The position numbers and the translations under genes are program-made. From assembly GCA_018509705.1 (NCBI GenBank), contig GCA_018509705.1_3630.1: DNA of 64,000 nt. One strand, 5' to 3'. A model generated the notes under the pieces. It was not told the origin of the DNA. It ran no database searches and saw only the letters and a list, made by a program, of their open reading frames with translations. The stretch's first letter is position 1. The number at the start of each line of letters is the position of its first letter. This stretch comes from a phage. This document shows positions 2,158 to 64,000 of the stretch, in pieces.

Positions 2158-2256
2158 GGTGCTAGGTGATGGAATCGAACCACCTATGTATTCAACGACT
2201 ACCTCGTCTATTTTCAGGATTAAAAATCCTCGCCCTTGCCAAAGGGCTTACCTAGC
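2158..2256 (-). tRNA. Aberrant tRNA-like element (good acceptor/D/T arms, irregular anticodon arm, over-long variable region); possible pseudo-tRNA
   Basis: Acceptor GCTAGGT/ACCTAGC pair, T-arm GGTGGTTCGATTCCATC, but anticodon stem does not close canonically and about 30 nt lie between anticodon arm and T-arm. Confidence 0.25.
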
Positions 2257-4699: not shown

Positions 4700-4975
4700 A
4701 TAGCTGTGGAGCGATTTAGGTGCCTTCTTGTCCGTTTCCACACATAAACTTCATCCAAGCTCGCGCGGGAGACTCTCAACCGACTCCTTCCGGCGCTGGC
4801 AAGCTTTCGTCGGTGGTCCACATCAGTGCTCGGCCTTTGGCCTGCGCTATCGCTTCGCTCTCACACATGTTAACAGACCTGCATGTATGCACTTCTGTTA
4901 TTGTGTGCACCAGGGAGGCCCGGCATCTCGCCCCTCGTAGGCGAGTGCCAATGAAGGGCCGACACTACCCATAGT
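4700..4975. other. GC-rich structured island without convincing ORF; candidate stable non-coding RNA next to the tRNA cluster
   Basis: Local GC clearly higher than flanks, many short complementary GC stems, track ORFs here have no RBS and odd composition. Confidence 0.25.
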
Positions 4976-6711: not shown

Positions 6712-7626
6712 ATGAAGTATTTTAATGCAGACGACCTAGTTGACAAAGGTCTTGTAACCAGCAGATATTACCCAGATCTTGGGTTAAAGATCTATAAATA
6801 TGCCAGAAAAGTATTCTACAACAACTTATGGCATTTGTCTCCTCGATTACTGGAGTGCCGAGGCATTGTTGTCGGTAATGAAGGAAATGTTGTGGCATGG
6901 CCCTTCACAAAAGTGTTTAACTTGGGAGAAAACTCCACCAACCTGCCTGACAATAAGCTTGTGACGGCGGTAGAGAAAAAGAACGGATTCCTTGGTGTGG
7001 TGTCATCTCATAAAGGTGAACTATTGTTCTCAACAACCGGGTCTCTTGATTCTCCATATTGTAACCTTGCAAAGGAAACCATCCAGGAGCAATGCAGTAA
7101 TTTAGATCTTATCAAGAAGGTTATGGGCAATGAAAACATGACATTCATGTTTGAAATTTGTCACCCTTCAGATCCGCATATTGTTCAGGAAGATCATGGT
7201 GCATATTTGATAGGTTGCAGATATAATGATTCTGGAATAATGCTACCAGAAGCAGCTTTAGATGGGATTGCCAAATACCTTGGTGCAAAACGTCCTCACA
7301 CTGTGCGTGAAATTCCGTTCAGTTATGCAAAAGAATTGGCTGCAGAAACAAGAGGTGAAGGGTATATGATTCGTAAGCCTTACTACCCTTATGATCTGCA
7401 GCTGAAGATTAAGTCTCCATACTATCTGGCACGGAAGGCCGTAATGAGGGGTAAAGCTTGGAAGATTTGGGATGATGATATCTTTAAACGTGTTGACGAA
7501 GAGTTTTACGGCATGGTAAACTTCATTCGTAACAACTACACAGAGGATGTATGGAACTGCCTCCTGGAGCAGGAACGCCGTGAGATACTTGATTACTATT
7601 TCCACAACGAGAACTATATGCAATGA
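6712..7626 (+). CDS. RNA ligase (covalent nucleotidyltransferase superfamily)
   Basis: Motif I KKNGF (KxNG), motif IV EGYMIRK, motif V LKIK; AGGAA RBS before ATG 6712 (alternative start 6691). Confidence 0.6.
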   Translation: MKYFNADDLVDKGLVTSRYYPDLGLKIYKYARKVFYNNLWHLSPRLLECRGIVVGNEGNVVAWPFTKVFNLGENSTNLPDNKLVTAVEKKNGFLGVVSSHKGELLFSTTGSLDSPYCNLAKETIQEQCSNLDLIKKVMGNENMTFMFEICHPSDPHIVQEDHGAYLIGCRYNDSGIMLPEAALDGIAKYLGAKRPHTVREIPFSYAKELAAETRGEGYMIRKPYYPYDLQLKIKSPYYLARKAVMRGKAWKIWDDDIFKRVDEEFYGMVNFIRNNYTEDVWNCLLEQERREILDYYFHNENYMQ

Positions 7627-8756: not shown

Positions 8757-9470
8757 ATGCTGAATACTAAATTAATTGACAACCTGGAAAAACTATCCCA
8801 ACCTGAAAACTACCTTTGGTCTGCCAACTGGGTGGAAAACTGGAACCGTGTGGCAGCTAAAGTGAAAAAATCATACACACCATTCGAATTACAGCTTAGC
8901 TTCATTGAGGAAGAGTTCAATGAAGTTTTGGAAGAGCTGGAGAAAGGTGATGGTGGAGATCACCTGCTAAAAGAGGCCTGCGATCTTCACGTTGTCACAA
9001 GTTATGCAGCTTATCTTGTTAATGACAATCACGAAAAGTGGTCAAACCTGTTTGATAATCCACGAGGTCTTAAGTTCAAGATCGGTGAGTTCTATGACAC
9101 ACTGATCGCTGCGAAAAACACATCCAAGCAAAGAGCGTCAGCTTACCGTTTAGCGGAGTTGTCAACAGCTTTGCTGTTCCAGCTTCGCGGCGATGTGTGC
9201 GGGATGATGCGTAAGGTTCTCAAATCGAATGACAGCAAGTTTGCACGGGTCAACCATCTACGGTATTCACACGGTGCCAGTGCAGATATGCCTGCTGAAC
9301 AACTCATCGAGTTGGAGATTAAAGATCTTGAGCGACGCTTTGATGGTCGATATGAAGGTTTTGTTGCTAAGGAAGAATTCTACAACGGTAATAAAGTTAT
9401 CATATTCCTCGACAGTAAAGGTAAGATTATGAAGCCTTCAAGCTTCAAGGATGTAACAGAATATATTTAA
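8757..9470 (+). CDS. hypothetical protein, possible MazG/HisE-like all-alpha NTP pyrophosphatase
   Basis: FIEEEFNEVLEELEK ... EACDL resembles EExxE...D motif; weak. Confidence 0.3.
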   Translation: MLNTKLIDNLEKLSQPENYLWSANWVENWNRVAAKVKKSYTPFELQLSFIEEEFNEVLEELEKGDGGDHLLKEACDLHVVTSYAAYLVNDNHEKWSNLFDNPRGLKFKIGEFYDTLIAAKNTSKQRASAYRLAELSTALLFQLRGDVCGMMRKVLKSNDSKFARVNHLRYSHGASADMPAEQLIELEIKDLERRFDGRYEGFVAKEEFYNGNKVIIFLDSKGKIMKPSSFKDVTEYI

Positions 9471-21800: not shown

Positions 21801-21840
21801 AATGGCTCACTTTGTTAGTGAGCCAGAAATGGAGACAGAT

Positions 21841-40617: not shown

Positions 40618-40664
40618 TGTTTTCAAAGAGGGTTTGGTTCCCTCTTCTTTAAAAGGAACACGTT

Positions 40665-48968: not shown

Positions 48969-49233
48969 TTATTTGTTGCTCATCCAGTTTTCCCAAGCTG
49001 CCTGATAATCTGCCTCACTACGGCGGATCTCTTCTTGCTCTTCAAGGCGGATCTCTTCTTCCAGGTACCCCAAGATGTCAGCCTTTTTGGTCTGGCGTAA
49101 CATCCAATCATCTTTTTTACGAGTGAAGATCTTATAAGCTTTCTCGCAAACCTCTTTTTTGCTACCTTTCTGGACTTCAAGAATTCTGTAGGCCATGTAC
49201 TGAACTAATTTAAGCTGATCCAGACGTTTCATG
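48969..49233 (-). CDS. hypothetical protein
   Basis: AAGAGGA RBS before ATG 49233. Confidence 0.45.
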
Positions 49234-49293
49234 ATGTTTTCCTCTTTATGTGGTCCTGGTTTAGTGGGCCTTTTGGCCCGTGTCATTATCTTA

Positions 49294-49566: not shown

Positions 49567-49777
49567 AGTGTTTTCCTCTCTCCTGGTTATTGTGTGGGCA
49601 CTTTTGCCCCTTCAAGATAAATGTTACCCCACCCCATGGCAGATGTCAACGGTTTTTATAGTTCTTATATGACAGGCAGGCCCGGTGATTGTCTCCACCC
49701 GTCGCCAGGTGCCTGCCGTGAAACAAGTATAACAAAAAACAGGACCATTGCAAGCCCTGTTTTGTAGTTTATAAGGA

Positions 49778-50825: not shown

Positions 50826-50908
50826 GATTCTACCCTCATTAATGGGCGTTGCCTTATTGCCCCGCCCTACGAAATACAGTCTATCAAGTAATAAACTATT
50901 GTCAAGAT

Positions 50909-51046
50909 TTATTTTACTTCCCAAACGGAAAATTCACTACCTGGCGGAATCATCTTTTTAATCTTGTTTGCTGCTGCTACCAGATCCACGGCTTGTACTG
51001 TAATAATATAACCAATTGTCGAGGCTGTTGCGTTGAAAGTTTTCAT
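50909..51046 (-). CDS. micro-ORF, 45-aa peptide
   Basis: Downstream of leader hairpin GGCGGGAAGTATTCCCGCG; RBS GAGGGT. Confidence 0.3.
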   Translation of the reverse strand: MKTFNATASTIGYIITVQAVDLVAAANKIKKMIPPGSEFSVWEVK

Positions 51047-51129
51047 TAAATTACCCTCATTAATGGCGGGAAGTATTCCCGCGCTATGTAGTACACTTTA
51101 CCAGATTGTTGACTGTTGTCAAACTATTT

Positions 51130-51307
51130 TAACGATAATCATCATATGCTTTATTGACCTGGCGAATATAACATTCAAAAGCTAGATCAATAGATTTATA
51201 TTCACGGATATATTCACCATAGGAAACCACATACATTTCTATAGCTTCCTCATATGCGAGGAGAATAGAATCTAAGCCTACGATCTCAGTCTTTGCAATA
51301 ATAGCCA
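51130..51307 (-). CDS. hypothetical small protein (59 aa)
   Basis: MAIIAKTEIVGLDSILLAYEEAIEMYVVSYGEYIREYKSIDLAFE...; below track length cutoff. Confidence 0.35.
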
Positions 51308-51383
51308 TGATTTTTATCCTCTTTGTGGTTGGTGGGGCTTGTTGCCCCCTTTGATTTATATTCTACAGTCTTATAAGGTCATG

Positions 51384-51617
51384 TCAACTATTTTCAAAAA
51401 ATTTTTCTGCTGTAATATTTTTCCCGGTAGGGTTCGCTACTTTCAAAATTTTATCATGCACTGGACGCCCAAAAGAATAAGCGCCGTACACAGTGCACCA
51501 ATAATCGCCGTCAGGCTGTACTATTACAGCCGCATAGGGTACGCCTTTTTCGTTTTTGCTGACAAAATAGATCACGTTGCCATTAATAGCCTCGGCGCGT
51601 TTAATTTGTTCCATCAT
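51384..51617 (-). CDS. hypothetical small protein
   Basis: ORF track. Confidence 0.4.
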   Translation of the reverse strand: MMEQIKRAEAINGNVIYFVSKNEKGVPYAAVIVQPDGDYWCTVYGAYSFGRPVHDKILKVANPTGKNITAEKFFENS

Positions 51618-51673
51618 GATGATTTGCCTCTCTTTATTTTCATAATTGGGGGGCCTTTTCGGCCCCGCCAGGT

Positions 51674-51958
51674 TTATTTATTGATAGCGTGCAGCGGGAA
51701 AGGTACGCCAGGTTGATAGATAACTTTTACAACCTCATCAGAGCAAAAGAAATTACAAAATTCACCCTGATAAGCCTCATCCTCTTTTAATTCTTCATCA
51801 ACATACTGGAAAAAGTAGTCAATGCTTGGATAATCCTGACCGGGATTATATTCAACCATGGTTAATAACAATTCTTGATCATTCCGTATGATATGCATAC
51901 CAGCTTTTAAGTATTTGGCTTCCATTTCTACTACATCGCCAACGGTAACAATAGCCAT
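51674..51958 (-). CDS. hypothetical acidic protein
   Basis: ORF track. Confidence 0.4.
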   Translation of the reverse strand: MAIVTVGDVVEMEAKYLKAGMHIIRNDQELLLTMVEYNPGQDYPSIDYFFQYVDEELKEDEAYQGEFCNFFCSDEVVKVIYQPGVPFPLHAINK

Positions 51959-52164
51959 GGTTTTAACTCCTATCTATCCGGTTAATGATTGGAGGCCTCA
52001 CCGCCCCCCGACACCCTTTATTATCCATATTGTAGGACTTGATGCAAGTACTTCTTTAAAAATTTTTTAAGCGCCTTGGGGGCCGCTGTAACGCCAAAAT
52101 AATAAAGGCTATGCAACCGCATAGCCTTTATGTGATTATATCGCTGCAGGCCCTGCCAGGGGCC

Positions 52165-52515
52165 TTATTTTGCATTCTTTCCTATATTGCCGCTACGGTA
52201 CCAGCGTTTACGGTGAAAATGGTAATAATCACCATCGGCATTAAACATCAGATGATTTTCAATAACCAGCTTACGAAGGTGGGCCGGATCTTGTTCCATT
52301 CTTGCCAGATTCTGGCGGCTGTTACGTAAGCGGATAAATTCTATATTCAGGCCGTTGATTGCAGCATGGATGTCAAAGTAACCACCTTTGAGACGTTCAC
52401 GCATGGCGTTAAGCTCAACACAATATACAGATTTCTCACAAATCAAGGTATTAGCCAGGGCGCGGACCTGGGCAAGAGGGTTAAGCTCATTAAGGTAATA
52501 TAGTTTTACTTTCAT
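52165..52515 (-). CDS. hypothetical protein
   Basis: ORF track. Confidence 0.4.
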   Translation of the reverse strand: MKVKLYYLNELNPLAQVRALANTLICEKSVYCVELNAMRERLKGGYFDIHAAINGLNIEFIRLRNSRQNLARMEQDPAHLRKLVIENHLMFNADGDYYHFHRKRWYRSGNIGKNAK

Positions 52516-52532
52516 AAAATCACCTGCTGAAA

Positions 52533-52853
52533 TTAGTTTGAGAAAACATCGTTCACAATAGCGATCACAATGCCGCCCACCTTGTCACGGTCAACAATGC
52601 ACAAATCACCATAGATCATGTGGTAGTCTGGATGATCTTTGACGGAATAGTCGATAAGTGTTTTCTTGTCATCCAGCTTACTAACTTCCATTCTCATAAC
52701 GATATGAGAATCATCAAAGGCATTATTCCGAAAAGTCATAACCTGACCGCCAGGGCACCCGGTGATTTCCACCTCCACGCCGTCTACGATCTGACCATCA
52801 AAGAAATAAAGATTATTAGCCTGGATAAACATGATCATTACTCCTTTTTGCAC
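52533..52853 (-). CDS. hypothetical protein
   Basis: ORF track; AAAAGGAG RBS. Confidence 0.4.
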   Translation of the reverse strand: MQKGVMIMFIQANNLYFFDGQIVDGVEVEITGCPGGQVMTFRNNAFDDSHIVMRMEVSKLDDKKTLIDYSVKDHPDYHMIYGDLCIVDRDKVGGIVIAIVNDVFSN

Positions 52854-52876
52854 TGATTATTTTAACAGGGTTTAAA

Positions 52877-52920
52877 TTTACTTTATTGATGGCCCTGGAG
52901 TCAAGGCCATCTAAAAATAA
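52877..52920 (-). promoter_or_regulatory. 44-bp conserved palindromic terminator-promoter element, copy 1 of 3
   Basis: Minus strand TTATTTTTAGATGGCC-TTGACTCCAG-GGCCATCAATAAAGTAAA directly after upstream stop; TTGACx hexamer in loop. Confidence 0.5.
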
Positions 52921-52923
52921 ATT

Positions 52924-53124
52924 TTACAGGCCTACAATCTCTTTAATTCGTTTTACTGCTGCCTCAGCGCCTTGAGGGTAAAAATTATGGTAACCAATCA
53001 CGCGAGTGATACTAATCGCCGTTTGATGATCTTCATAATCACCTTTAAAGATTTCTTGACCGTCAATCAGCACGGCAATTTTTTCTTCTTTTTTGAAGTT
53101 AATAACGCGGATATTGTTGCTCAT
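52924..53124 (-). CDS. hypothetical small protein
   Basis: ORF track; leader hairpin GGGGAGTGTCTCCCC upstream. Confidence 0.4.
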   Translation of the reverse strand: MSNNIRVINFKKEEKIAVLIDGQEIFKGDYEDHQTAISITRVIGYHNFYPQGAEAAVKRIKEIVGL

Positions 53125-53220
53125 TTTGTTTCTCCTTTTGGAACTTTGTCTATGCGGTGGGGAGTGTCTCCCCGTTGATTGTTATTATCCATATTCTGGA
53201 TCGGATTGCAACACTCAGGG

Positions 53221-53261
53221 AGAAAAAAATTTGAAAAGTTAGGCCCCCATGATCGGGGGCC
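53221..53261 (-). terminator. Rho-independent terminator (minus)
   Basis: GGCCCCCGATCATGGGGGCC hairpin followed by T-rich run on minus strand. Confidence 0.5.
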
Positions 53262-53265
53262 GTTC

Positions 53266-53385
53266 TTAGTTACTTACAGCGATAAAGTACATCCCTACGC
53301 CTAGCAATATTTCAAGGGCGATAATCTCAAGCCATACCATAACGCGGCGCACCTTATCGGTGCATGGCTTATCCTTGGTTGTCAT
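53266..53385 (-). CDS. micro-ORF, 39-aa membrane peptide
   Basis: Strong AAGGGGGAG RBS; MTTKDKPCTDKVRRVMVWLEIIALEILLGVGMYFIAVSN. Confidence 0.35.
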   Translation of the reverse strand: MTTKDKPCTDKVRRVMVWLEIIALEILLGVGMYFIAVSN

Positions 53386-53604
53386 CGTCTCCCCCTTTCC
53401 TTCTGGTAGTAGTGACGCGATCTACAATGGCCCCCAGGAGTCCTATCACGACACACACCACAAGAAAAATTATCTCCGCTGTTGTTCGATCCATTGTTAT
53501 AAAATTCCTCAAGATCAGGCCTGAAAATAAAGCGTTCGTTATTGAATCCATCCCGCCAGGCGGCTGGCTTCAAATCTTCACTAAAGGGGTTAATTAACGT
53601 GGCA

Positions 53605-54009
53605 TTATTTAAACGGCTGGTCCACATATTTTCTATTCCTCTCAAATAGGCGATCCGCCTCAGTTAAACAAATCTCATGGGCGTGATCTCTGGTTTTAGC
53701 TTCATCGAAAACCTGTTGTGCAAGGCTGCAACGTAGGGAGACTGGAAGATCACTATAATAGGCGTTGACAAACGTTTGAGCGTCGTACAGGTCTGAAAAT
53801 ACTTTACCCTTTCTATTATTCCCCTTGTCAACAATTGCAAGGATAACCAATACAATAGTTGCAACCACCCCCAGGAAAATAGATATAATAAACCATAAAA
53901 AGGCGGATCTTCCCATCTTGCCAGCGATCCAGGCGTTAAACAAGGCAACCAATACAGCCAAAATAATAAATTCCATTCTATGTACCTCTTTTACAGTTCT
54001 GATTAACAA
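53605..54009 (-). CDS. membrane protein (two TM helices)
   Basis: MEFIILAVLVALFNAWIAG and FLWFIISIFLGVVATIVLVILAIV. Confidence 0.45.
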   Translation of the reverse strand: MLIRTVKEVHRMEFIILAVLVALFNAWIAGKMGRSAFLWFIISIFLGVVATIVLVILAIVDKGNNRKGKVFSDLYDAQTFVNAYYSDLPVSLRCSLAQQVFDEAKTRDHAHEICLTEADRLFERNRKYVDQPFK

Positions 54010-54040
54010 TAAGGCGGCAAATATGCCGCCTGCTACCTGA

Positions 54041-54421
54041 TTAAAAATTATCGCCGTAAATCTTTCCGCTTTCTACCCATACCACCACGCGAGGCATACT
54101 ATCCCACACGTCTTGTTTTAGATTGAGCGCGTGCAATTCTTCGGTGGTGCTCATACCGGGCACGGGCTGATTGTATACTGCAAAACGACCGCCTGCATAA
54201 TCATAGGCCAGGGTTAAATCACACTGGATCATCTTTTTGATCATGGCATTAAGCATGGCGTTAGCCGCATATTGATCACGTTTTAAAGGCAACTCTTTGA
54301 TTAGTTTGCGATAGTTTTCGATATGGTCGCACACTGTTTCACGAGGAAGATCTTTCATATCTTCACGGAATGTAACCAGGTTAAACATAACGGTGTCAAT
54401 AGCCTTGGTAGTGTTTTTCAT
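54041..54421 (-). CDS. hypothetical protein
   Basis: ORF track. Confidence 0.45.
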   Translation of the reverse strand: MKNTTKAIDTVMFNLVTFREDMKDLPRETVCDHIENYRKLIKELPLKRDQYAANAMLNAMIKKMIQCDLTLAYDYAGGRFAVYNQPVPGMSTTEELHALNLKQDVWDSMPRVVVWVESGKIYGDNF

Positions 54422-54511
54422 GATGTTATCCTCTTTGTTTTGTGTTGGGGCAAACGTCTTGCCACCTTGAGTTTTAATATAGCAGGTTTTTAGGTTATTG
54501 CAACACTTTAT

Positions 54512-54889
54512 TTATGAAAAAGTCATCTCACCATATTCATCGACATCAAACCGCCAATCATTGGCCTCGATAAGGCCGATCAGGTTTTCTGCGGTGAACT
54601 GTTCTAGATAGGCCTCCTCCAGGTCTACGTAAACCTTGCGGGATAGCTCCCGTACCGTCTCGGTGATCAGTTCTTCCAGGTCTTCCACTTTGTTTTCTTG
54701 TTTGGCGGTCAGATCTAGCCAAGTGGTATCAATGTACCCGCTTACAGTGTTTTCATGGCTGTAATGGCTGTACTTGTCGCGTTCAACACTGGCTGATAAC
54801 TCGCCATCGTGCATTGTGCCGAACAAGTGACGAATTGATCGGAACTTGGTCAGGGCCTTTACTTTACGCAAAAATTTTTCTAAATCCAC
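54512..54889 (-). CDS. hypothetical acidic protein
   Basis: ORF track. Confidence 0.45.
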   Translation of the reverse strand: MDLEKFLRKVKALTKFRSIRHLFGTMHDGELSASVERDKYSHYSHENTVSGYIDTTWLDLTAKQENKVEDLEELITETVRELSRKVYVDLEEAYLEQFTAENLIGLIEANDWRFDVDEYGEMTFS

Positions 54890-54946
54890 GTTTTCAGCAC
54901 TGATTGACGCGCCGTCACCCTGGCACCAAAAGCCTGACCAATGTAC

Positions 54947-55135
54947 TTAGGTATCTTCAAGGCCATACTCTGGAAAAACATATTCTTTATAGTATTCAAT
55001 TACACTTTCTGCAAAAAAGTTATCCCCGCTGTGTTCTTCTCTTTCGCGGACCATTTCAACGGCTTTTTCTTTTTGTTCGTCGGTCAGCACGTCGAAAGAT
55101 AAATTGTAACCTGCGGTAATGTTAACGGTGGTCAT
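54947..55135 (-). CDS. hypothetical small acidic protein
   Basis: ORF track; AGGAGAA RBS. Confidence 0.4.
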   Translation of the reverse strand: MTTVNITAGYNLSFDVLTDEQKEKAVEMVREREEHSGDNFFAESVIEYYKEYVFPEYGLEDT

Positions 55136-55163
55136 GATATTTTCTCCTATTTTCTTTGTTAGT

Positions 55164-55220
55164 GGCGGGAAGTTTTCCCGCCTGTGTGTTTAAGTATACT
55201 TATTGAGGCTTACTTGTCAA
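55164..55220 (-). promoter_or_regulatory. promoter (TTGACA-16-TATACT) followed by conserved leader hairpin GGCGGGAAAACTTCCCGCC
   Basis: Read on minus strand; hairpin at 55164-55182. Confidence 0.5.
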
Positions 55221-55470
55221 CACTATTTTTTAAATTATTGTGGCGCAAAATGTTTAAAATCTCCTCAACGTCATCAACACGGCGGCAATTTTTAAACGCT
55301 ACCAATTGCCCCATGATTTTAATCACTGGGCGGCCTTGCCAGTGCCCCTGAAGAAAGCGCGCCCTGACTTTATCGGTGGAACTATCACGCCACCAAATAG
55401 CCTTGTTGTTGCAGTAGTAAAAATTATTCAGGATAACATCAACTTTATCAAAATTTTTTAATTTACGCAT
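55210..55470 (-). CDS. hypothetical protein
   Basis: ORF track; TTGACA-16-TATACT about 40 nt upstream. Confidence 0.4.
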   Translation of the reverse strand: MRKLKNFDKVDVILNNFYYCNNKAIWWRDSSTDKVRARFLQGHWQGRPVIKIMGQLVAFKNCRRVDDVEEILNILRHNNLKNSVDK

Positions 55471-55651
55471 GGCGTTTACTCCTTTCTCTCTTTGATGTGG
55501 TTAGTATAGCTAACCTGTTGACGATGTCAATGATATTTTTAACGCCATGAAACGGCCCTGGGCGATGTTTTCAGGTTAAAGGGGGCGATTGCATAGGTGG
55601 GGGCCTTTTTGGCGCTTACAGGGCCAACCAGGGGCGCTATTCGTAGGATAG

Positions 55652-55681
55652 AAATAAAAAGCCCCGCACAATGGCGGGGCG
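55652..55681 (-). terminator. Rho-independent terminator (minus)
   Basis: GCCCCGCCATTGTGCGGGGC hairpin plus T-run on minus strand. Confidence 0.6.
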
Positions 55682-55688
55682 TTGGTTG

Positions 55689-55886
55689 TTATTTGTCTTT
55701 ATGGCGGTATCGTTCTGCCTGTCGTTCACGTTCCAAAAGTAGGCCGGGCAATTTACGATCATAATGATTACGCCAGATCTTCCCAAACCTTTTTGGCTTA
55801 TTCAGTTTATTGTTACGCTGGCGGCGTTCTGGCAGCTCTTCGGAATCATGAGGGCGCTTTACAATTTTCTCGAAATTAATTTTCAT
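55689..55886 (-). CDS. hypothetical small basic protein
   Basis: Lys/Arg-rich; start uncertain. Confidence 0.3.
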   Translation of the reverse strand: MKINFEKIVKRPHDSEELPERRQRNNKLNKPKRFGKIWRNHYDRKLPGLLLERERQAERYRHKDK

Positions 55887-56229
55887 ATATTCCCCCCTTG
55901 CTAACTTCAATATTGGCCTGAATAGCCCGGATACGGCGCTTTATAACTTCCTGATCTGTGTGGTCGTATCCCCAAAAGTCTACAATTTTTGCGCCCCCCG
56001 CCTCCAGGCGGTATAGTGTTTCCTGCATTTTGTAAGCCGGGATCGGTCGCGGTGTTACTTGGTCACCTTCTTTATTTTTATACTTTATAATATAATCTTC
56101 GTTATCGTTGAATGCCCAAAATGGATATTCTGCAAGGGCGGTACTTCCTCTTTCCTTTTTATCCTGGATCTTATTTACAATTAAAGCCGTAGCAATAGCG
56201 CCAATAATAAAACTTGCCCCGCTGATCAT
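55876..56229 (-). CDS. membrane-anchored protein
   Basis: N-terminal TM ISGASFIIGAIATALIV. Confidence 0.45.
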   Translation of the reverse strand: MISGASFIIGAIATALIVNKIQDKKERGSTALAEYPFWAFNDNEDYIIKYKNKEGDQVTPRPIPAYKMQETLYRLEAGGAKIVDFWGYDHTDQEVIKRRIRAIQANIEVSKGGIYEN

Positions 56230-56303
56230 GTACTTTCTCCTTTCATGGTGTTAATAAATTATCTTTATAGATGGCCCTGCAACCAGGACCACCGAAAAAA
56301 TAA

Positions 56304-56549
56304 CTATTTCACAATGCCTACAAAACAGATCCCGCCTTCACCTATATAAGCAATATCGGTCACTTTATAACTTGTCAAGATCTGCTTATTTAGTTCATTA
56401 ATAAAATCGGTCATTGCGTTGGTGTAGTTGTCTTCCGTGTCTAAGGCATAATCCCAGGTGTACACCTTTTTACGTCCGAAGCCTTTTACCATGATACGGG
56501 CGCTTTTGGTGTTGGTAGGGGCATAATATTTGGTGATTAGTGCTGCCAT
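56304..56549 (-). CDS. hypothetical small protein
   Basis: ORF track; AGGAGTTAAAACC then ATG. Confidence 0.45.
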   Translation of the reverse strand: MAALITKYYAPTNTKSARIMVKGFGRKKVYTWDYALDTEDNYTNAMTDFINELNKQILTSYKVTDIAYIGEGGICFVGIVK

Positions 56550-56592
56550 GGTTTTAACTCCTATGCATTAGTTCAGTGTTAACAGTATAAAG

Positions 56593-56636
56593 TTTACTTT
56601 ATTGATGGCCCTGGTGTCAAGGCCATCTAAAAATAA
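56593..56636 (-). promoter_or_regulatory. 44-bp conserved palindromic terminator-promoter element, copy 2 of 3
   Basis: Identical to copy 3; directly after stop of gene 56639-56980. Confidence 0.5.
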
Positions 56637-56638
56637 GC

Positions 56639-56980
56639 TTACTCGTTTTCTTCCAGCTCCGCAAGCTCTTCTTTTGCTTCTTCTAACTCTGTCTGTAATT
56701 CCTGGTATTCTTCATCGTCCTCAATATCCAGGCTGTCGATGTAGTCGCTAAATCCGCAGCGGTAAGCGATAGGATCTAGCTCCTTGAGGATACGCGACGG
56801 AAGAAAAGAAATGTTTCCGATCATAATTTCGCCGTAGATCTCGTCTAACCATTCATCATAGTTTTCGTCGTACTTGTCCTCGTCGATTTCAAAGTTATCG
56901 ATCTTATTCTCAAGGTCTGCGATCTGTTTTTTCAGTTCAGCGATCTGCATAGCTTTTTCTGAGGCGGTCATAGTAGTCAT
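56639..56980 (-). CDS. hypothetical acidic coiled-coil protein
   Basis: ORF track. Confidence 0.45.
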   Translation of the reverse strand: MTTMTASEKAMQIAELKKQIADLENKIDNFEIDEDKYDENYDEWLDEIYGEIMIGNISFLPSRILKELDPIAYRCGFSDYIDSLDIEDDEEYQELQTELEEAKEELAELEENE

Positions 56981-57006
56981 GGTGTTTTTCTCCTTTTGTG
57001 TGTTCT

Positions 57007-57059
57007 GGGAAGTTTTCCCGTTTATGTGCTTATTATATCGATTTAAGTTAGCTTGTCAA
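57007..57059 (-). promoter_or_regulatory. promoter (TTGACA-16-TATAAT) followed by leader hairpin GGGAAAACTTCCC
   Basis: Read on minus strand. Confidence 0.55.
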
Positions 57060-57112
57060 TTAAAAGTTTAAGAAAAATTTTGCGACACCGTTGGCGCTAC
57101 CCATCAACATTT

Positions 57113-57180
57113 GCGCCAGGATGTACCCAATGATGCAAACGATGATGGTTACCTTTGTGTGCTGGCGTGTAGTGCTCATC
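57113..57180 (-). CDS. micro-ORF, hydrophobic peptide (boundaries approximate)
   Basis: AAGGAGG RBS; MSTTRQHTKVTIIVCIIGYILAQMLMGSANG... Confidence 0.3.
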
Positions 57181-57213
57181 TTTAAGCCTCCTTTTCCGCT
57201 CAACTGTGGTTAG

Positions 57214-57257
57214 TTTACTTTATTGATGGCCCTGGTGTCAAGGCCATCTAAAAATAA
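57214..57257 (-). promoter_or_regulatory. 44-bp conserved palindromic terminator-promoter element, copy 3 of 3
   Basis: TTATTTTTAGATGGCC-TTGACACCAG-GGCCATCAATAAAGTAAA after stop of gene 57260-57655. Confidence 0.5.
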
Positions 57258-57259
57258 AC

Positions 57260-57655
57260 TCAATAAGTTTTTAGTACTTTCCCGTCCAATCTGTCAAGCT
57301 GGATCTCGATAGCTGCAGAAAACCTATTGTAAACCACATCGCCCAGGGAGTCCAGCCAATCTATGACGTTATATACCTGCTCTTTATTCTTGCAAGTCCG
57401 GATCCGTTTCATTACGTAAGACGGATCAATATTAGCGCTCTCGTTGTTGTGGTCCTGCGCCTGGCCTGCTGCGCTAGTTATAGATTTTACAACCACCTGA
57501 AAGGGCTTTAAGGTGCCTTTTGCGTTCATCTCACGCGCTTTTGCGGCGCGGTTGTTATATGTTACACAACGGCGGCAAATGTTGACCAAATGCATATCAA
57601 TAATTTTTTCATCGTTTGCCAGTTCGTTCATGATGCGGCGTACGTTCTTGTTCAT
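57260..57655 (-). CDS. hypothetical protein
   Basis: ORF track; AAAGGAAAAAG RBS. Confidence 0.45.
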   Translation of the reverse strand: MNKNVRRIMNELANDEKIIDMHLVNICRRCVTYNNRAAKAREMNAKGTLKPFQVVVKSITSAAGQAQDHNNESANIDPSYVMKRIRTCKNKEQVYNVIDWLDSLGDVVYNRFSAAIEIQLDRLDGKVLKTY

Positions 57656-57675
57656 GATCTTTTTCCTTTGTGCTG

Positions 57676-57731
57676 GCGGGAAACATTCCCGCCTTTTGTG
57701 TCTAGTTTACTTAAATTTTGCAGCGTGTCAA
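57676..57731 (-). promoter_or_regulatory. promoter (TTGACA-16-TAAACT) followed by leader hairpin GGCGGGAATGTTTCCCGCC
   Basis: Read on minus strand. Confidence 0.5.
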
Positions 57732-57737
57732 TGATTT

Positions 57738-58136
57738 TTATTCGTGGGCGCATGTTACAATGTGTTTTTTATAGCCCAGGTGGTCAGCAAGTGCCGACAA
57801 AAACTCTTCTTCGTAGATCCAGCCGTCGGCAGTGATCCCCATAGCATTTAATGCGCTCTCAAGTGCTGCGTTAGCTTTATCGTAACCGTGACCGCTCGCC
57901 TTGCCGCCAGTATAACCGTACTTATTGTTCTTGTTGTCGTGAATCCAAAACACGCAGTAGTGAGTGTTCCCGCTGGCGGCGGCATAATACCGGATCTCAG
58001 CTACTTCGTGCAAATTATTGTCATCGTCCAGGCCCACCAGATTATAAGCCTTGTAAAATCCACGATCACGGCGGCAGTTCTTGACATCAGAAAAAGAAAA
58101 GTCCGCATTATCAAAATTAAAGGTAGTGGTTTTCAT
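57738..58136 (-). CDS. hypothetical protein
   Basis: ORF track. Confidence 0.45.
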   Translation of the reverse strand: MKTTTFNFDNADFSFSDVKNCRRDRGFYKAYNLVGLDDDNNLHEVAEIRYYAAASGNTHYCVFWIHDNKNNKYGYTGGKASGHGYDKANAALESALNAMGITADGWIYEEEFLSALADHLGYKKHIVTCAHE

Positions 58137-58200: not shown

Positions 58201-58398
58201 TTATTTTTTATTAAACCAGTGGTTGATCTGTCCTTTTGTCAGGGCGCAACGATTAAGCTGTTGCCGGGTATAGCTCTGACCGCGACGGAATTTATAAAGG
58301 CCTTGCCCGTTGTTGATGGTTACGTCCACCTGGCAAACCATTTGATCGGTGACCACCTGGCGAGTGTTGCGACGTACTTTGATCCCGTATGCGTTCAT
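58201..58398 (-). CDS. hypothetical small basic protein
   Basis: AGAGGA RBS before ATG 58398. Confidence 0.4.
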   Translation of the reverse strand: MNAYGIKVRRNTRQVVTDQMVCQVDVTINNGQGLYKFRRGQSYTRQQLNRCALTKGQINHWFNKK

Positions 58399-58481
58399 AA
58401 ATTTATCCTCTTTACTGGTTAGTGCGGTGTTGTTCACCTTGTAGGGTAATAATACCATGATTAACCTTGTTGTCAACGATT

Positions 58482-58622: not shown

Positions 58623-58759
58623 TTGTACCTCCTCTTCAATTGTTTACCCTACAGCATGGGCCTACCAGGTTTGCAAGATTTCACCCTCTCCCACCTGGTC
58701 AGTTAGGTCCTGCCAGGTTGCAACGGTTAGCGCATCAGGTTAGAAAAATTTTTTGAAAA

Positions 58760-59030
58760 GGTGTTGACAGCGGCCCCGCCAGGGGGCACAATATACCTAT
58801 CGAAAGGACGGCAGGCACCGGTGACGGGGGAGACAACCACCGGGGATGGGCGCTGCATAAAATGAGAACGGTTATCATTATCATTTAAAAATTTATGCAA
58901 AAAATCCTTGCCTTCTTTGTCCTGTGTGATACTATAATAACAAGCCGGGGCAACAGGGGCCGGGAGACAATCACCGGGCCTGCCCGTTATTCTGCAAACG
59001 AGAATGATTATCATTCAAAATTCTAAATGA
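58760..59030 (+). ncRNA. two tandem homologous GC-rich structured units, each behind a promoter-like sequence; candidate small RNAs
   Basis: Unit 1 ...GGGGGAGACAACCACCGGGGA...AAATGAGAACGGTTATCATTATCATTT; unit 2 ...GGCCGGGAGACAATCACCGGGCC...AAACGAGAATGATTATCATTCAAAATT; TTGACA and TTGCCT-16-TACTAT upstream. Confidence 0.25.
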
Positions 59031-59224
59031 GAACTCCTCGCATTTAATAAATTTAATTAGCATGCTAATTACCCTCCGTAACAATTTCCTATAAAACAGT
59101 ATCCCATAAAATATTCCCATATAGAAATTTTAAAAATCCATTTCTGAAAACGAAAAATCGATTTCGTCCCCAAAAATTTCAGGTCGAGAGCTGGAACGAT
59201 TTCCAGAAAATCCGATTCAGAAAA

Positions 59225-59315
59225 CGAAAAACAGATCGAGTACTTGGAAATTTATCGAGAAAAATTTTCAGAAAATTCAATCTTTGAAACGAAAAACAGA
59301 TCGAGTACTTGGAAA
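59225..59315. repeat. perfect 26-bp direct repeat x2 inside an AT-rich GAAAA-repeat tract
   Basis: CGAAAAACAGATCGAGTACTTGGAAA at 59225-59250 and 59290-59315. Confidence 0.65.
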
Positions 59316-59620
59316 GCTGTACCGCAACTTCAAGATAGTGGCTGGATTATTGCCATAAAAGGCCAAGGGCGAGTGGGAAAGTTCTGGTAGAAGGGTGTGA
59401 GCATACGCGGAAAATCTGGAATGGTAGCCCGGAATATGACGCAAACGATAGGATGAGTGGTTCAGCTCATCGTGTCTACCCTGAAAAATCCATTTTAGTT
59501 TTCGATCCGTTTTCTGATTTTCTAAGAATTTTAAAATATCTGGCCTGGTGAAATATCAAAAAGGAGGAAATCCATTTTAGAAATCCCCCTTATACTTGAT
59601 ATGCCAGAAATTTTCAAGTA

Positions 59621-59950
59621 TCAGCTATCTTTGTTTTTAGGTTTATACATGCGGAGAGGTATAGTCTTTGTAACATTCCACTTCCTCAACCCTTCCCAGC
59701 TCCAATTGTGGGCGTGGTATCCGGTTATGCATGCACTGCTAGAGTGATCGTAAGCATAAGAGAACGCTAAGCGCACCAGGTGAGGCCAGTCCTTCCACGG
59801 TTGTGGCCCGTAAGCTTTTCTCCAACACCGACACAAACTAAATGTCTCAAGGATAGGAAGGATAACAAACCCATACACTGTAACCAAAATAGTCAGTGCA
59901 ATGATTGTCAGGAACACATACCCTGCAGTTGAAATGATGATCTCTGTCAT
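59621..59950 (-). CDS. membrane protein
   Basis: N-terminal TM IIISTAGYVFLTIIALTILVTVYGFVILPIL. Confidence 0.45.
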   Translation of the reverse strand: MTEIIISTAGYVFLTIIALTILVTVYGFVILPILETFSLCRCWRKAYGPQPWKDWPHLVRLAFSYAYDHSSSACITGYHAHNWSWEGLRKWNVTKTIPLRMYKPKNKDS

Positions 59951-63094: not shown

Positions 63095-63155
63095 TTTTCA
63101 GATCTCCTTATACAAAAAGCCCCACCCTTTCGGGCAGGGCTATGTTAGTTATGTG

Positions 63156-63734
63156 TTAAAAGTATTCATAGAAGTATCCATCTGGAGCTGGAATTTTTTC
63201 ATGAATGTAGTAACCAATATATATTCCAGTTTCTCTGCTACAAGAGTTGTGGGATACCCATTCTTTAAGAACGTTACCATTCATGTCCAACCTCCTTACA
63301 TTTTTGCACCGTCTACCGCTGGTGCTTCTATGTAACAGAATATCCTCTGTCTGCTTGTCTTTATTTTCTCCCCAAGTCGTTAAACGGATATTATCAAAAG
63401 AGTACCCTTTGAAATCATCTATCCTGTCGCAAGAAGGCTTTTTCCTTTTGTCGTATCCGCTGGCTACCCACTGATCATACAACTCTTTGTAACCGTTTAG
63501 GTATAGCCACTCCTTAAACTCTTTTTTGGTGTAAGTCGGAGGAGGGTGACCTCTTTGCTTGCTGTTGCACTTTTGAGCCTTGTACAACACACGTATTACA
63601 CCTTTTTCTGAAGAGTCTTTAGCAAATTGGTCAGCCTCCCTGCTGGCCTTCTTGCAACACTCTTTGCACGTTGATTTGTTACTGGTGTAGAAGTCGGAGG
63701 CCTCCTTGTCCTCTCCACAACGTTTGCATTTCAT
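63156..63734 (-). CDS. HNH homing endonuclease with N-terminal zinc ribbon
   Basis: MKCKRCG...CKECC then SCDRIDDFKGYSFDNIRLTTWGEN HNH core. Confidence 0.6.
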   Translation of the reverse strand: MKCKRCGEDKEASDFYTSNKSTCKECCKKASREADQFAKDSSEKGVIRVLYKAQKCNSKQRGHPPPTYTKKEFKEWLYLNGYKELYDQWVASGYDKRKKPSCDRIDDFKGYSFDNIRLTTWGENKDKQTEDILLHRSTSGRRCKNVRRLDMNGNVLKEWVSHNSCSRETGIYIGYYIHEKIPAPDGYFYEYF

Positions 63735-63742
63735 AACTGACC

Positions 63743-64000
63743 TCAGAAAGGGATCGAGTCATCGAACTCATACTGTGCTGGATTCTGGCCCATCGGGTCA
63801 TCTTCCTCGTCATTTACAGGAGGAGCGTCTACAGTGTTTTGCTGTGGAGCGGCTTCCTGTTTGGCAGTTTGAGGTTCTTGATGGTCAGTTGACCCAGCCC
63901 CGTTCTTGATCCAATCGTACAACGGCTCAGCCAGATTAGTCAAGACATCTTTTGCTTCTGTAGTAATTGCCACTGCAAAATCATCAACTTTCGTTTTCTT
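63743..64000 (-). CDS. ssb: single-stranded DNA-binding protein, C-terminal part (gene starts beyond window end)
   Basis: Gln/Pro-rich linker ending in acidic tail EFDDSIPF, like bacterial SSB DDDIPF. Confidence 0.5.
   Translation of the reverse strand, partial: KKTKVDDFAVAITTEAKDVLTNLAEPLYDWIKNGAGSTDHQEPQTAKQEAAPQQNTVDAPPVNDEEDDPMGQNPAQYEFDDSIPF

Follow-up and report, generated by a model that had tools for sequence, protein, structure and literature searches.

Eleven minus-strand cassettes of one common layout, in which a strong sigma70 promoter is followed at a fixed short distance by a hairpin in the leader, were found between 49.5 and 58.5 kb of a 64,000-nt stretch of DNA (contig GCA_018509705.1_3630.1 of assembly GCA_018509705.1; the whole stretch is called the window below). 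Nucleotide matches identified this 64-kb window as belonging to an rV5-like E. coli phage of the genus Vequintavirus. The combination of promoter and leader hairpin is a real, non-random architecture. The hairpin is read here, with a probability of about one half, as a structure-dependent, 5′-proximal leader element that would protect or insulate the mRNA 5′-end, carried within a portable promoter cassette that recombines. A dedicated recognition signal is not supported by the evidence.

Architecture of the cassettes

The cassettes were delineated by a promoter scan combined with folding. Each consists of an A/T-rich tract, a sigma70 promoter, a gap of 9-12 nt, a hairpin, an A-rich linker, a strong Shine-Dalgarno (SD) sequence, and an ATG opening a small open reading frame (ORF). 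The promoters of all 11 cassettes have the form TTGACA (or TTGCAA/TTGCAT)-N16-17-TAnnnT, with 9-12 of the 12 consensus positions matched, and the 20 nt located 5′ of each -35 element are A/T-rich (e.g., AAAATAATTTAAAATAATCG and GAAAAATTTTTTGAAAATAG). The distance from the -10 element to the first paired base is 9-12 nt in 11/11 cassettes (10, 10, 12, 10, 9, 10, 11, 11, 12, 10, and 11 nt in P58476, P57731, P57059, P55220, P54503, P53211, P52045, P51387, P51122, P50905, and P49649, respectively). A first-pass annotation of this DNA had described near-consensus promoters followed by a hairpin within about 10 nt; the promoters of the copies it named are indeed of the TTGACA-N16-TAnnnT type, matching the consensus at 10-12 of 12 positions, and the distance is correct if counted from the -10. 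The hairpins have a G-rich 5′ arm and a C-rich 3′ arm, stems of 4-9 bp, and energies of -4.4 to -15 kcal/mol, and are followed by an A-rich, G-poor linker of ~20-35 nt. The stems comprise GGCGGGAA (twice), GCGGGAA, GGGAA, GGGGAG, GGGGC, GGGGGC, GGGCA, GGGCG, GG(T)GGCAA, and GGTG.

The pattern GCGGGAA-N{3,5}-TTCCCGC occurs exactly three times in the 64 kb (51066-51082, 55165-55181, and 57676-57692), always with a 3-nt loop, and was absent from 100 shuffles. When an outer G-C pair is counted, two of the three copies extend to 8-bp stems (GGCGGGAA/TTCCCGCC). These three stems are identical over 7-8 bp, yet the spacers of their promoters are dissimilar. Four such hairpins had been proposed in the first-pass annotation; three are exact, and the fourth, at 57007-57019, is the 5-bp hairpin GGGAAaacTTCCC, which lacks the outer GC/GC. 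Similar hairpins that had been assigned to other leaders were recovered at 49597 and 53160, whereas the one placed at 54440 really lies at 54447-54466, and the one at 49263 corresponds to a leader hairpin, GGGCCaaaaGGCCC, at 49266-49279 (z = -2.4; within 49231..49285 on the minus strand, with its ATG at 49231), the promoter of which is weak or uncertain. Two proposed plus-strand examples, at 21805 and 40626, have another geometry than the minus-strand cassettes. The hairpin at 21803-21825 lies only 2-3 nt after the -10, so that a transcription start 7 nt past the -10 would fall within its stem, and the hairpin at 40626-40646, with a T-run (CTTTAAAA) behind it, is possibly a terminator.

Enrichment was assessed under strict criteria, by which only fully paired stems of ≥5 bp that include ≥4 GC pairs were counted. 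Seven promoter-like sites carry such a hairpin 8-13 nt past the -10, compared with 0.48 on average, and never more than 3, in 60 first-order Markov simulations. The minimum free energy (MFE) z-scores of the leaders, which had been picked for containing hairpins, are all negative (-0.6 to -5.4). The genes at ~47-64 kb all lie on the minus strand, as part of a long early unit (genes 10-1-238-164 of the rV5 paper), and the cassettes are concentrated in its small-ORF block, since the other 35 kb of the unit, read in phage EdH4, yielded one more promoter-plus-hairpin only. The plus-strand promoters at 12-46 kb mostly have short leaders without a hairpin. All 10 of the downstream proteins tested fall in PHROGs of unknown function. 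The rV5 authors described reliance on the host RNA polymerase and predicted 33 sigma70 promoters and 20 terminators genome-wide, with no mention of leader hairpins (PMC3606486). In the annotation of the rV5 record, the P57059 and P55220 promoters correspond to P192 and P186, respectively.

Persistence, rearrangement, and spread of the cassettes

Orthologous leaders were extracted from 19 Vequintavirus loci of 85-99% identity in GenBank phage records (L001 is EdH4, L002 Alma, and L006 HdK5); these records were used instead of IMG/VR, where a protein-anchored search for orthologous leaders gave two loci only. Essentially every orthologous variant folds at the same place, despite changes in the loop, the stem length, and the G-run. 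Variable columns account for ~60% of the loop, 17% and 26% of the arms, and 28-35% of the flanks; these values are approximate, as two hairpin windows are mis-registered and indels shift columns. In some genomes the loop has been converted to its own reverse complement (TGT to ACA in P57731, and AAC to GTT in P55220), which is a signature of palindrome inversion or template switching. Such swaps between relatives indicate that the sequence and orientation of the loop are neutral. Stems with one internal non-Watson-Crick pair contain G.U/U.G in eight cases and A.C/C.A in one. Duplex DNA would treat both mismatches alike, whereas RNA tolerates only the first, and the excess of G.U thus fits selection acting on pairing of the sense-strand RNA rather than on duplex DNA.

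Rearrangements were mapped by aligning 47.5-64 kb of the window to the relatives. Of the 16 distinct events, ~11 by our count place a junction in a promoter, hairpin, or leader, and several of these show 16-48 nt of homology at the junction. A 573-bp deletion (56639/57212; L005, L015, and L024, with ime also named) runs exactly between two identical copies of a second cassette class, described below, which share 48 nt at the junction, and a 705-bp deletion (54513/55218) fuses P54503 to P55220 at their -35 regions. In seven relatives (L003, L008, L009, L011, L020, L021, and L025), a replacement junction lies at 51075-51085, within the GCGGGAA hairpin of P51122, and several of these replacements have their second junction in or beside the P50905 cassette. 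The P55530 promoter is the site of insertions of 283-588 bp, a 16-nt leader repeat (49238-49254) bounds a 280-bp insertion in L003/L010/L015, and further insertions are found at hairpins 48933-49 and 49736-63. Entire elements have also changed places: the P54503-type hairpin GGGGCAAGACGTTTGCCCC replaces the P49649 hairpin in L020/L021, and in L023/L027 the P55220 promoter is followed by the P57059 leader. The junction homologies point to recombination between repeated cassettes. Because hairpins and leaders are exchanged and indel junctions lie within them, cassette homology and recombination would explain the shared stem sequence.

The recurrence of a stem sequence, and not of structure alone, had been put forward in the first-pass annotation, and this was borne out for a subset of the cassettes; the GGCGGGAA-type stem was found in another phage subfamily as well. 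A pattern search of IMG/VR for the promoter plus GCGGGAA-N3-TTCCCGC (23 specified bases) returned six loci, where far fewer than one chance match is expected by our estimate. Four of the six, on contigs of 97-153 kb that are not Vequintavirus, differ both in their loops and in the genes downstream. In the Justusliebigvirus PD06 (Stephanstirmvirinae), the same layout precedes at least eight genes of the early ORFan region, with gaps of 9-14 nt. Two stems dominate there, GGCGGGAA(A)-TGG-(T)TTCCCGCC and GGGCGGCA-ATNG-TGCCGCCC, and at least five copies of the GGCGGGAA-type stem stand before genes other than those in Vequintavirus. Bulged variants (GGCGGCGGAA...TTCCCCGCC) also occur outside the genus.

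Individual cassettes and neighboring features

All of the following cassettes lie on the minus strand. P58476 (58398..58476) has a TG-extended TTGACA-N16-TATTAT promoter and a weak, 4-bp hairpin, GGTGaacaaCACC, at 58426-58438 (-4.8 kcal/mol, z = -1.1), which 16 relatives retain, L004/L022 in a U.G variant (CGCC); the ATG at 58398 opens a 65-aa ORFan. In P57731 (57655..57731), the -35 TTGACA (57726-57731) and the -10 TAAACT (57704-57709) are followed by hairpin GGCGGGAAtgtTTCCCGCC at 57675-57693 (MFE -14.6 kcal/mol, z = -3.6), an A-rich linker, and a 131-aa ORFan (ATG 57655); the stem is kept in 17 relatives, and the loop inversion occurs in L004/L007/L027. P57059 (56980..57059) combines a perfect consensus promoter, TTGACA-N16-TATAAT, with the degenerate 5-bp hairpin at 57007-57019 (-5.5 kcal/mol, z = -2.4) and precedes a 113-aa ORFan (ATG 56980). 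The P55220 cassette (55135..55220; TTGACA-N16-TATACT) carries hairpin GGCGGGAAaacTTCCCGCC at 55164-55182 (-14.6 kcal/mol, z = -5.4), with the inverted loop in L009/L010 and a U.G wobble variant, GGTGGGAA, in L004. The gene behind it (54950-55135, minus strand; ATG 55135) is shortened to 62 aa by a stop at 54950, compared with 207 aa in relatives and 201 positions in the PHROG 5162 profile; in this isolate the gene is probably split or a pseudogene, and in phage Alma it is split too.

P54503 (54421..54503) has a TG-extended TTGCAA-N16-TATATT promoter and a bulged hairpin, GGTGGCAAgacgtTTGCCCC, at 54447-54466, followed by a 126-aa ORFan (ATG 54421); in relatives the stem is either perfect (GGGGCAA/TTGCCCC) or includes a G.U pair (GGGGCGAG/CTTGCCCC). 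In P53211 (53124..53211; TTGCAA-N16-GATAAT; 66-aa ORFan, ATG 53124), the hairpin GGGGAGacaCTCCCC at 53159-53173 (z = -3.4) retains its GGGGA/TCCCC core in all 11 orthologous variants, the loops of which differ. P52045 (51958..52047) has a weaker -35 (TTGCAT-N16-GATAAT) and a hairpin with one G.U pair, GGGGGC-ggtgag-GCCTCC, at 51991-52008, before a 94-aa ORFan (ATG 51958); its 11 orthologous variants differ in loop and stem lengths, and all fold. P51387 (51308..51387; TTGACA-N16-TAGAAT; 59-aa ORFan, ATG 51308) contains hairpin GGGGCaacaaGCCCC at 51334-51348, labeled a "terminator" in EdH4/HdK5, and has replacement junctions at 51382 in L023/L026. P51122 (51046..51122) consists of a TG-extended TTGACA-N16-TAAAGT promoter and hairpin GCGGGAAtacTTCCCGC at 51066-51082, ahead of a 45-aa ORFan (ATG 51046). 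P50905 (50825..50905; TTGACA-N16-TAGACT) has hairpin GGGCG(gggcaataaggcaa)CGCCC at 50844-50867, before a 34-aa membrane-like ORF (ATG 50825), with junctions at 50845, 50850, 50869, 50883, and 50917 in relatives. Finally, P49649 (49566..49649; TTGACA-N17-TAACAT) carries hairpin GGGCAaaagTGCCC at 49596-49609 and leads to a 90-aa ORFan (ATG 49566).

In addition to these 11 cassettes, the 49.5-58.5-kb block contains four in which the hairpin encloses the -35. Their layout is TTATTTTTA-GATGGCCTTGAC(A/T)CCAGGGCCATC-AATAAAGTAAACT, with a 10-bp hairpin, including one U.G pair, around the TTGACA of an N18/TAAACT promoter. The first copy (57212..57260, minus strand) has the 24-nt hairpin GATGGCCTTGACACCAGGGCCATC at 57225-57248 around TTGACA, followed by N18 and TAAACT, and no leader hairpin. 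The second (56591..56640, minus strand), with its hairpin around the -35 at 56604-56627, is identical to the first. The third (52875..52925, minus strand) has hairpin GATGGCCTTGACTCCAGGGCCATC at 52888-52911, and the fourth, at 56270-56293 (minus strand), is degenerate.

Several further features of the window and its relatives were observed. A 6.8-kb region of the window shows 99.8% identity to the record "Campylobacter phage C12" and 99% to Escherichia phage EdH4, and matched 197 phage records at ≥80% identity, nearly all of them Vequintavirus. About 20 records are named "Campylobacter phage ..." (C12, C14, A142, C2, and others) and show up to 99.8% identity to this E. coli-type Vequintavirus, at least one being flagged UNVERIFIED (C2; L021 is also concerned); these are likely records with mis-attributed hosts or contaminating coliphages. 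A ~585-bp segment of the window (63161-63747), cleanly missing from four relatives (L020, L024, L025, and L027), has its left junction ~20 nt from a terminator hairpin (63118-63141), and may be a mobile or optional gene. In the tRNA cluster at 1913-2725, ARAGORN calls a 99-nt tRNA-like gene (2158-2256, minus strand) with a 4-base anticodon (atcc) and no assigned identity, which has a weak Rfam tRNA score (35.5 bits, against a gathering score of 29).

The ~1-kb block without ORFs at 58650-59750 is the "non-coding" box of the rV5 paper. It holds iteron-like direct repeats, three in number and ~57 nt long, at 59120-59315 (spacing 74/65), besides scattered AAATCC(A/G)TTT..GAAA 16-mers, and may serve as an origin of replication or as an array to which proteins bind. 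The window has three copies, where 0.02 would be expected, of a GC-rich element, GGAGACAAYCACCGGG (49681-49696 on the minus strand, and 58829-58844 and 58963-58978 on the plus strand), each of them within a longer imperfect hairpin (GGCAGGC...GCCTGCC). The copy at 49.7 kb follows a promoter-like TTGCAA-N16-TATACT, itself located in the hairpin 49736-49763, with no ORF until the next promoter, and could be a small RNA or a binding site.

Proposed function, alternatives, and significance

The E. coli RNA polymerase usually starts transcription ~7 nt past the -10. A start at this distance would place the beginning of the hairpin at about +3 to +6 of the cassette's own transcript. Hairpins at the 5′-end prolong the life of E. 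coli mRNAs, since 5′ nucleotides must be unpaired for both RppH and the 5′ sensor of RNase E, and a stem-loop in this position, if formed in vivo, would stabilize the transcript by limiting the access of both and, hence, 5′-end-dependent decay. Fragments cut from read-through transcripts within the AU-rich promoter segment would be protected equally. The hairpin may also serve as a folding insulator, allowing the leader, which is otherwise A-rich and unstructured, to fold independently of upstream sequence. In both roles, its structure and position would matter rather than any sequence recognized by a specific factor. As DNA, the repeated cassettes would provide short homologies for the deletion, insertion, and swapping of genes, and the shared GGCGGGAA...TTCCCGCC stem would reflect common descent and gene conversion of cassettes, together with purifying selection on pairing. 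Protection of the 5′-end fits the constraint on position, the interchangeable stems and loops, and the bias toward wobble pairs on the sense strand.

The 5′-terminal stem-loops of the E. coli ompA (hp1) and papA mRNAs are stabilizing elements (Emory, Bouvet, and Belasco 1992, as cited in PMC3997798), and according to the references given there, the longer mRNA life is irrespective of the hairpin sequence. The leaders described here resemble them in having a simple hairpin, predicted to lie near the 5′-end and of apparently unimportant sequence, followed by an unstructured leader and a strong ribosome-binding site. The pattern of structure over sequence, as seen in the different stems, the free loops, and the 8 to 1 wobble bias, is consistent with such a role, a match that amounts to consistency only. 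The ompA and papA hairpins act with at most a few unpaired 5′ nucleotides, whereas 3-6 are predicted here from the assumed start site.

This last difference is one of several points that weigh against the proposed protection. The E. coli RppH has the same requirement for unpaired 5′ nucleotides as the B. subtilis enzyme, and the 3-6 nt predicted to be unpaired lie at or past the limit of protection. For the B. subtilis RppH, at least two and preferably at least three unpaired 5′ nucleotides are needed (PMC3997798). Scanning by RNase E is reportedly little hindered by simple stem-loops that stand orthogonal to the path of the RNA (PMC9943677), which sets aside a role as a scanning barrier; protection of the extreme 5′-end alone stays plausible. 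The asymmetry between G.U and A.C comprises 9 cases only (p ~0.02, or ~0.06 for the leader hairpins alone), and pair-breaking C-to-A changes occur in several relatives. Compensatory double changes are almost absent among the orthologous hairpins of the 19 loci, and a formal covariation analysis gave no compensatory pairs because these hairpins are too conserved (genomes 91-99% identical), which left wobble-type changes and the G.U/A.C asymmetry as the only scorable signals. The excess of junctions in the cassettes is partly expected, as indel junctions survive preferentially in intergenic DNA. About half of the predicted promoters in the block have no leader hairpin (P55530, P58197, and three of the -35-enclosing cassettes), so the hairpin is not needed for early expression and is an optional module. 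Transcript 5′-ends or half-lives for rV5-like phages were not found in the literature searched.

Among known systems, the cassettes are best filed as a variant of the PeSL-type portable promoter/stem-loop element, in a lineage where these appear to be undescribed; no PeSL-like elements or leader hairpins in rV5-like phages or Vequintavirinae were described in the literature searched. PeSL cassettes are found in the T4-like phages RB49/phi1, PST/T4, and nt-1/KVP40 (Arbiol et al. 2010, PMC2839356; Comeau et al. 2014, PMC4122927). They combine a stem-loop of the G(n)-loop-C(n) type with a sigma70 early promoter of consensus sequence that is preceded by an AT-rich tract, are clustered in ORFan-rich hyperplastic regions, and recombine, such that ORFans are deleted, inserted, or swapped and mini-circles are formed (PMC2839356, PMC4122927). 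Apart from the placement of the stem-loop, the rV5-like cassettes agree with every one of the PeSL characters that can be examined in sequence: they have the strong sigma70 promoter and AT-rich upstream tract, a G(n)-loop-C(n) hairpin in which G-T pairs occur now and then, and an SD and start codon at the 3′ end, and they occur in many copies in an ORFan-rich block, with indel and replacement junctions of relatives in the cassettes, even within the stem-loop. They differ in their hosts' phage lineage, being carried by Vequintavirinae and Stephanstirmvirinae rather than Straboviridae, and in the placement of the stem-loop. Five stem-loop positions relative to the promoter have been described for PeSL (PMC2839356), and the second class found here, with its hairpin around the -35, fits one of them. 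In the RB49 upstream regions examined, the stem-loop lies mostly between the -35 and -10 or over the -10 (e.g., TTGACAGGGGATCACCGATCCCCTATAAT) and, being within the promoter, is outside the cassette's own transcript, whereas here it lies in the leader, 9-12 nt past the -10 and probably after the start site.

Four other explanations were considered; in decreasing order of confidence, they are an attenuator or terminator, a sequence-specific reader, a neutral by-product, and a duplex-DNA operator. The first, which follows the original PeSL proposal, is unlikely, albeit the best of the four. In this proposal, the stem-loop terminates upstream transcription, and one RB49 example reportedly cut lacZ expression as much as rrnB T1 (PMC2839356); applied here, it would stop or dampen upstream or opposite-strand transcription, leaving each ORFan chiefly under the control of its own promoter. 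The hairpins share with intrinsic terminators a GC-rich stem of 5-9 bp and a tight loop, and several are annotated as terminators in EdH4, HdK5, and Alma. Five pass a terminator-like scan on the antisense (plus) strand (e.g., GGCGGGAAACATTCCCGCC-TTTTGTGTCT), because the sense strand is A-rich directly 5′ of the stem. On the transcribed strand, however, none of the leader hairpins is followed by a U-tract (tails AGCACAAAGG, ACTAACAAAG, ACCAACCACA, and similar), and a minus-strand terminator scan lists none of them, while six canonical hairpin-plus-U-tract terminators exist elsewhere in the block. The absence of a U-rich tail leaves the claimed terminator role of PeSL unsupported by sequence in these phages. 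The antisense tails are mostly poor, those of PD06 (TATGTGGTAA) included, and the block has no plus-strand genes or strong plus-strand promoters. A terminator would stand before rather than after a promoter, and would have no reason to keep a fixed 9-12 nt from the -10. Sense-strand termination was rejected on the basis of the scan, and antisense termination is possible for two or three copies, not generally. That the hairpins are solely the 3′-ends of upstream transcripts, the outcome against which the first-pass annotation had set its own idea, is likewise unlikely, since none has a sense-strand U-tract.

The public "terminator" labels are at 935-949 and 7282-7300 in EdH4, 2435-2449 and 8804-8822 in HdK5, and 4769-4790 and 7281-7305 in Alma, each of them between a promoter and its gene. 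Operon maps built on these annotations are probably wrong, because the annotated elements follow promoters and lack U-tracts.

A somewhat lower probability is given to a sequence-specific RNA element, in which the GGCGGGAA-N3-TTCCCGCC hairpin would be bound by a phage or host factor (an antiterminator, nuclease, stabilizer, or translational regulator) that co-regulates a subset of early genes. The three identical stems behind dissimilar promoter spacers argue for such a reader, as do the greater conservation of stems than of flanks and the occurrence of the same stem family after promoters of different genes in another subfamily (the six IMG/VR matches and at least five PD06 copies). Against it, at least six unrelated stem sequences (e.g., GGGGAG, GGGGC, GGGCA, GGGCG, and GGTG) occupy the same 9-12-nt slot, and the loops vary freely and invert, unlike a signal that is read through its loop, as boxB is. 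Bulges in the stem and its shortening are tolerated, and a bulge would keep an RNA hairpin but break a DNA or protein site of fixed spacing. An A-form stem offers little sequence read-out, neither an Rfam match nor a boxA-like partner was found, and the identity of the stems is explicable by cassette exchange. The view in the first-pass annotation that a conserved sequence implies a protein- or RNA-recognized element (for antitermination, processing by an RNase, or a common regulator) is thus unsupported, given the unrelated stems in the same slot, the free loops, the bulged variants, and the exchange of cassettes. It is still less probable that GGCGGGAA-N3-TTCCCGCC, common to Vequintavirinae and Stephanstirmvirinae, is a cis-regulatory tag (as 5′ RNA or as DNA at +4..+22) whose reader co-ordinately stabilizes, silences, or times host-takeover genes; if so, the remaining stems in this slot would serve further factors as tags or represent decayed copies.

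Specific recognition systems of known type were compared in the same light. The lambdoid nut sites (boxA + boxB) and HK022 put are likewise short leader hairpins of early phage transcripts, present at several promoters. The boxB hairpin is read through a conserved loop, with boxA as partner, whereas the loops here are of 3 nt, variable, and invertible, and the put RNAs are far larger, two-stem structures. Sequences resembling boxA (YGCTCTTWA) are not enriched (3 found, 2.4 expected), and none lies beside a hairpin; given the variable, invertible loops and unenriched boxA, boxA/boxB antitermination was rejected. The promoters of the N4 virion RNA polymerase are hairpins with a 5-7-bp stem, a 3-nt loop, and conserved loop and stem bases, the hairpin itself being the promoter for a phage-borne polymerase. 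The leader hairpins are similar in stem and loop size and in their early-region location, but a full sigma70 promoter precedes each of them and the loop center is unconserved (G, A, or C), and this type was rejected on that account. RNase III sites comprise about two helical turns (~20 bp) of double-stranded RNA, for which stems of 4-9 bp are too short. At gathering thresholds, an Rfam 15 scan of the whole window passed only tRNAs, and an E-value scan of 49.0-59.8 kb gave just two chance-level matches (E ~0.7).

Another doubtful reading, of about the same standing as the regulatory tag, is that the palindromes are a neutral by-product of recombination or replication, persisting as homology patches or through quasi-palindrome dynamics with no role in the mRNA. 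The junctions, hairpin swaps, and loop inversions do attest to processes at the DNA level, and half of the promoters work without a hairpin. Neutral palindromes should, however, decay or drift in position, whereas the distance from the -10 is fixed in 11 cassettes and two subfamilies, pairing is maintained through changes in loop and length, and the wobble bias indicates the sense strand. The least probable of the four is a duplex-DNA operator, a perfect 17-19-bp palindrome at about +4 to +22 bound by a dimeric repressor that shuts off the early promoters: the perfect inverted repeat with a free 3-bp center and tolerated central-spacer variation is typical of operators, and a site just past the start would block escape or elongation, but sibling cassettes carry different palindromes at the same position, variants with a 1-nt bulge or a 4-5-nt center alter the half-site spacing, the 8 to 1 excess of G.T over A.C is unexpected for duplex recognition, and no candidate repressor turned up, although no systematic search was made.

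The cassettes offer a natural series, with one position and many stems and loops, for asking how near the 5′-end a protective hairpin must be. They are also compact, naturally insulated units of strong expression, comprising an UP-like tract, a consensus promoter, a 5′ hairpin, an A-rich leader, and a strong SD, and are candidates for synthetic biology. For the phages themselves, the findings extend the PeSL idea, that of cassettes which both express and shuffle ORFans, from the T4-like phages to two further subfamilies of large E. coli myoviruses, and offer an explanation for the mosaicism of the early region. They suggest a general route by which lytic phages turn over their host-takeover genes.

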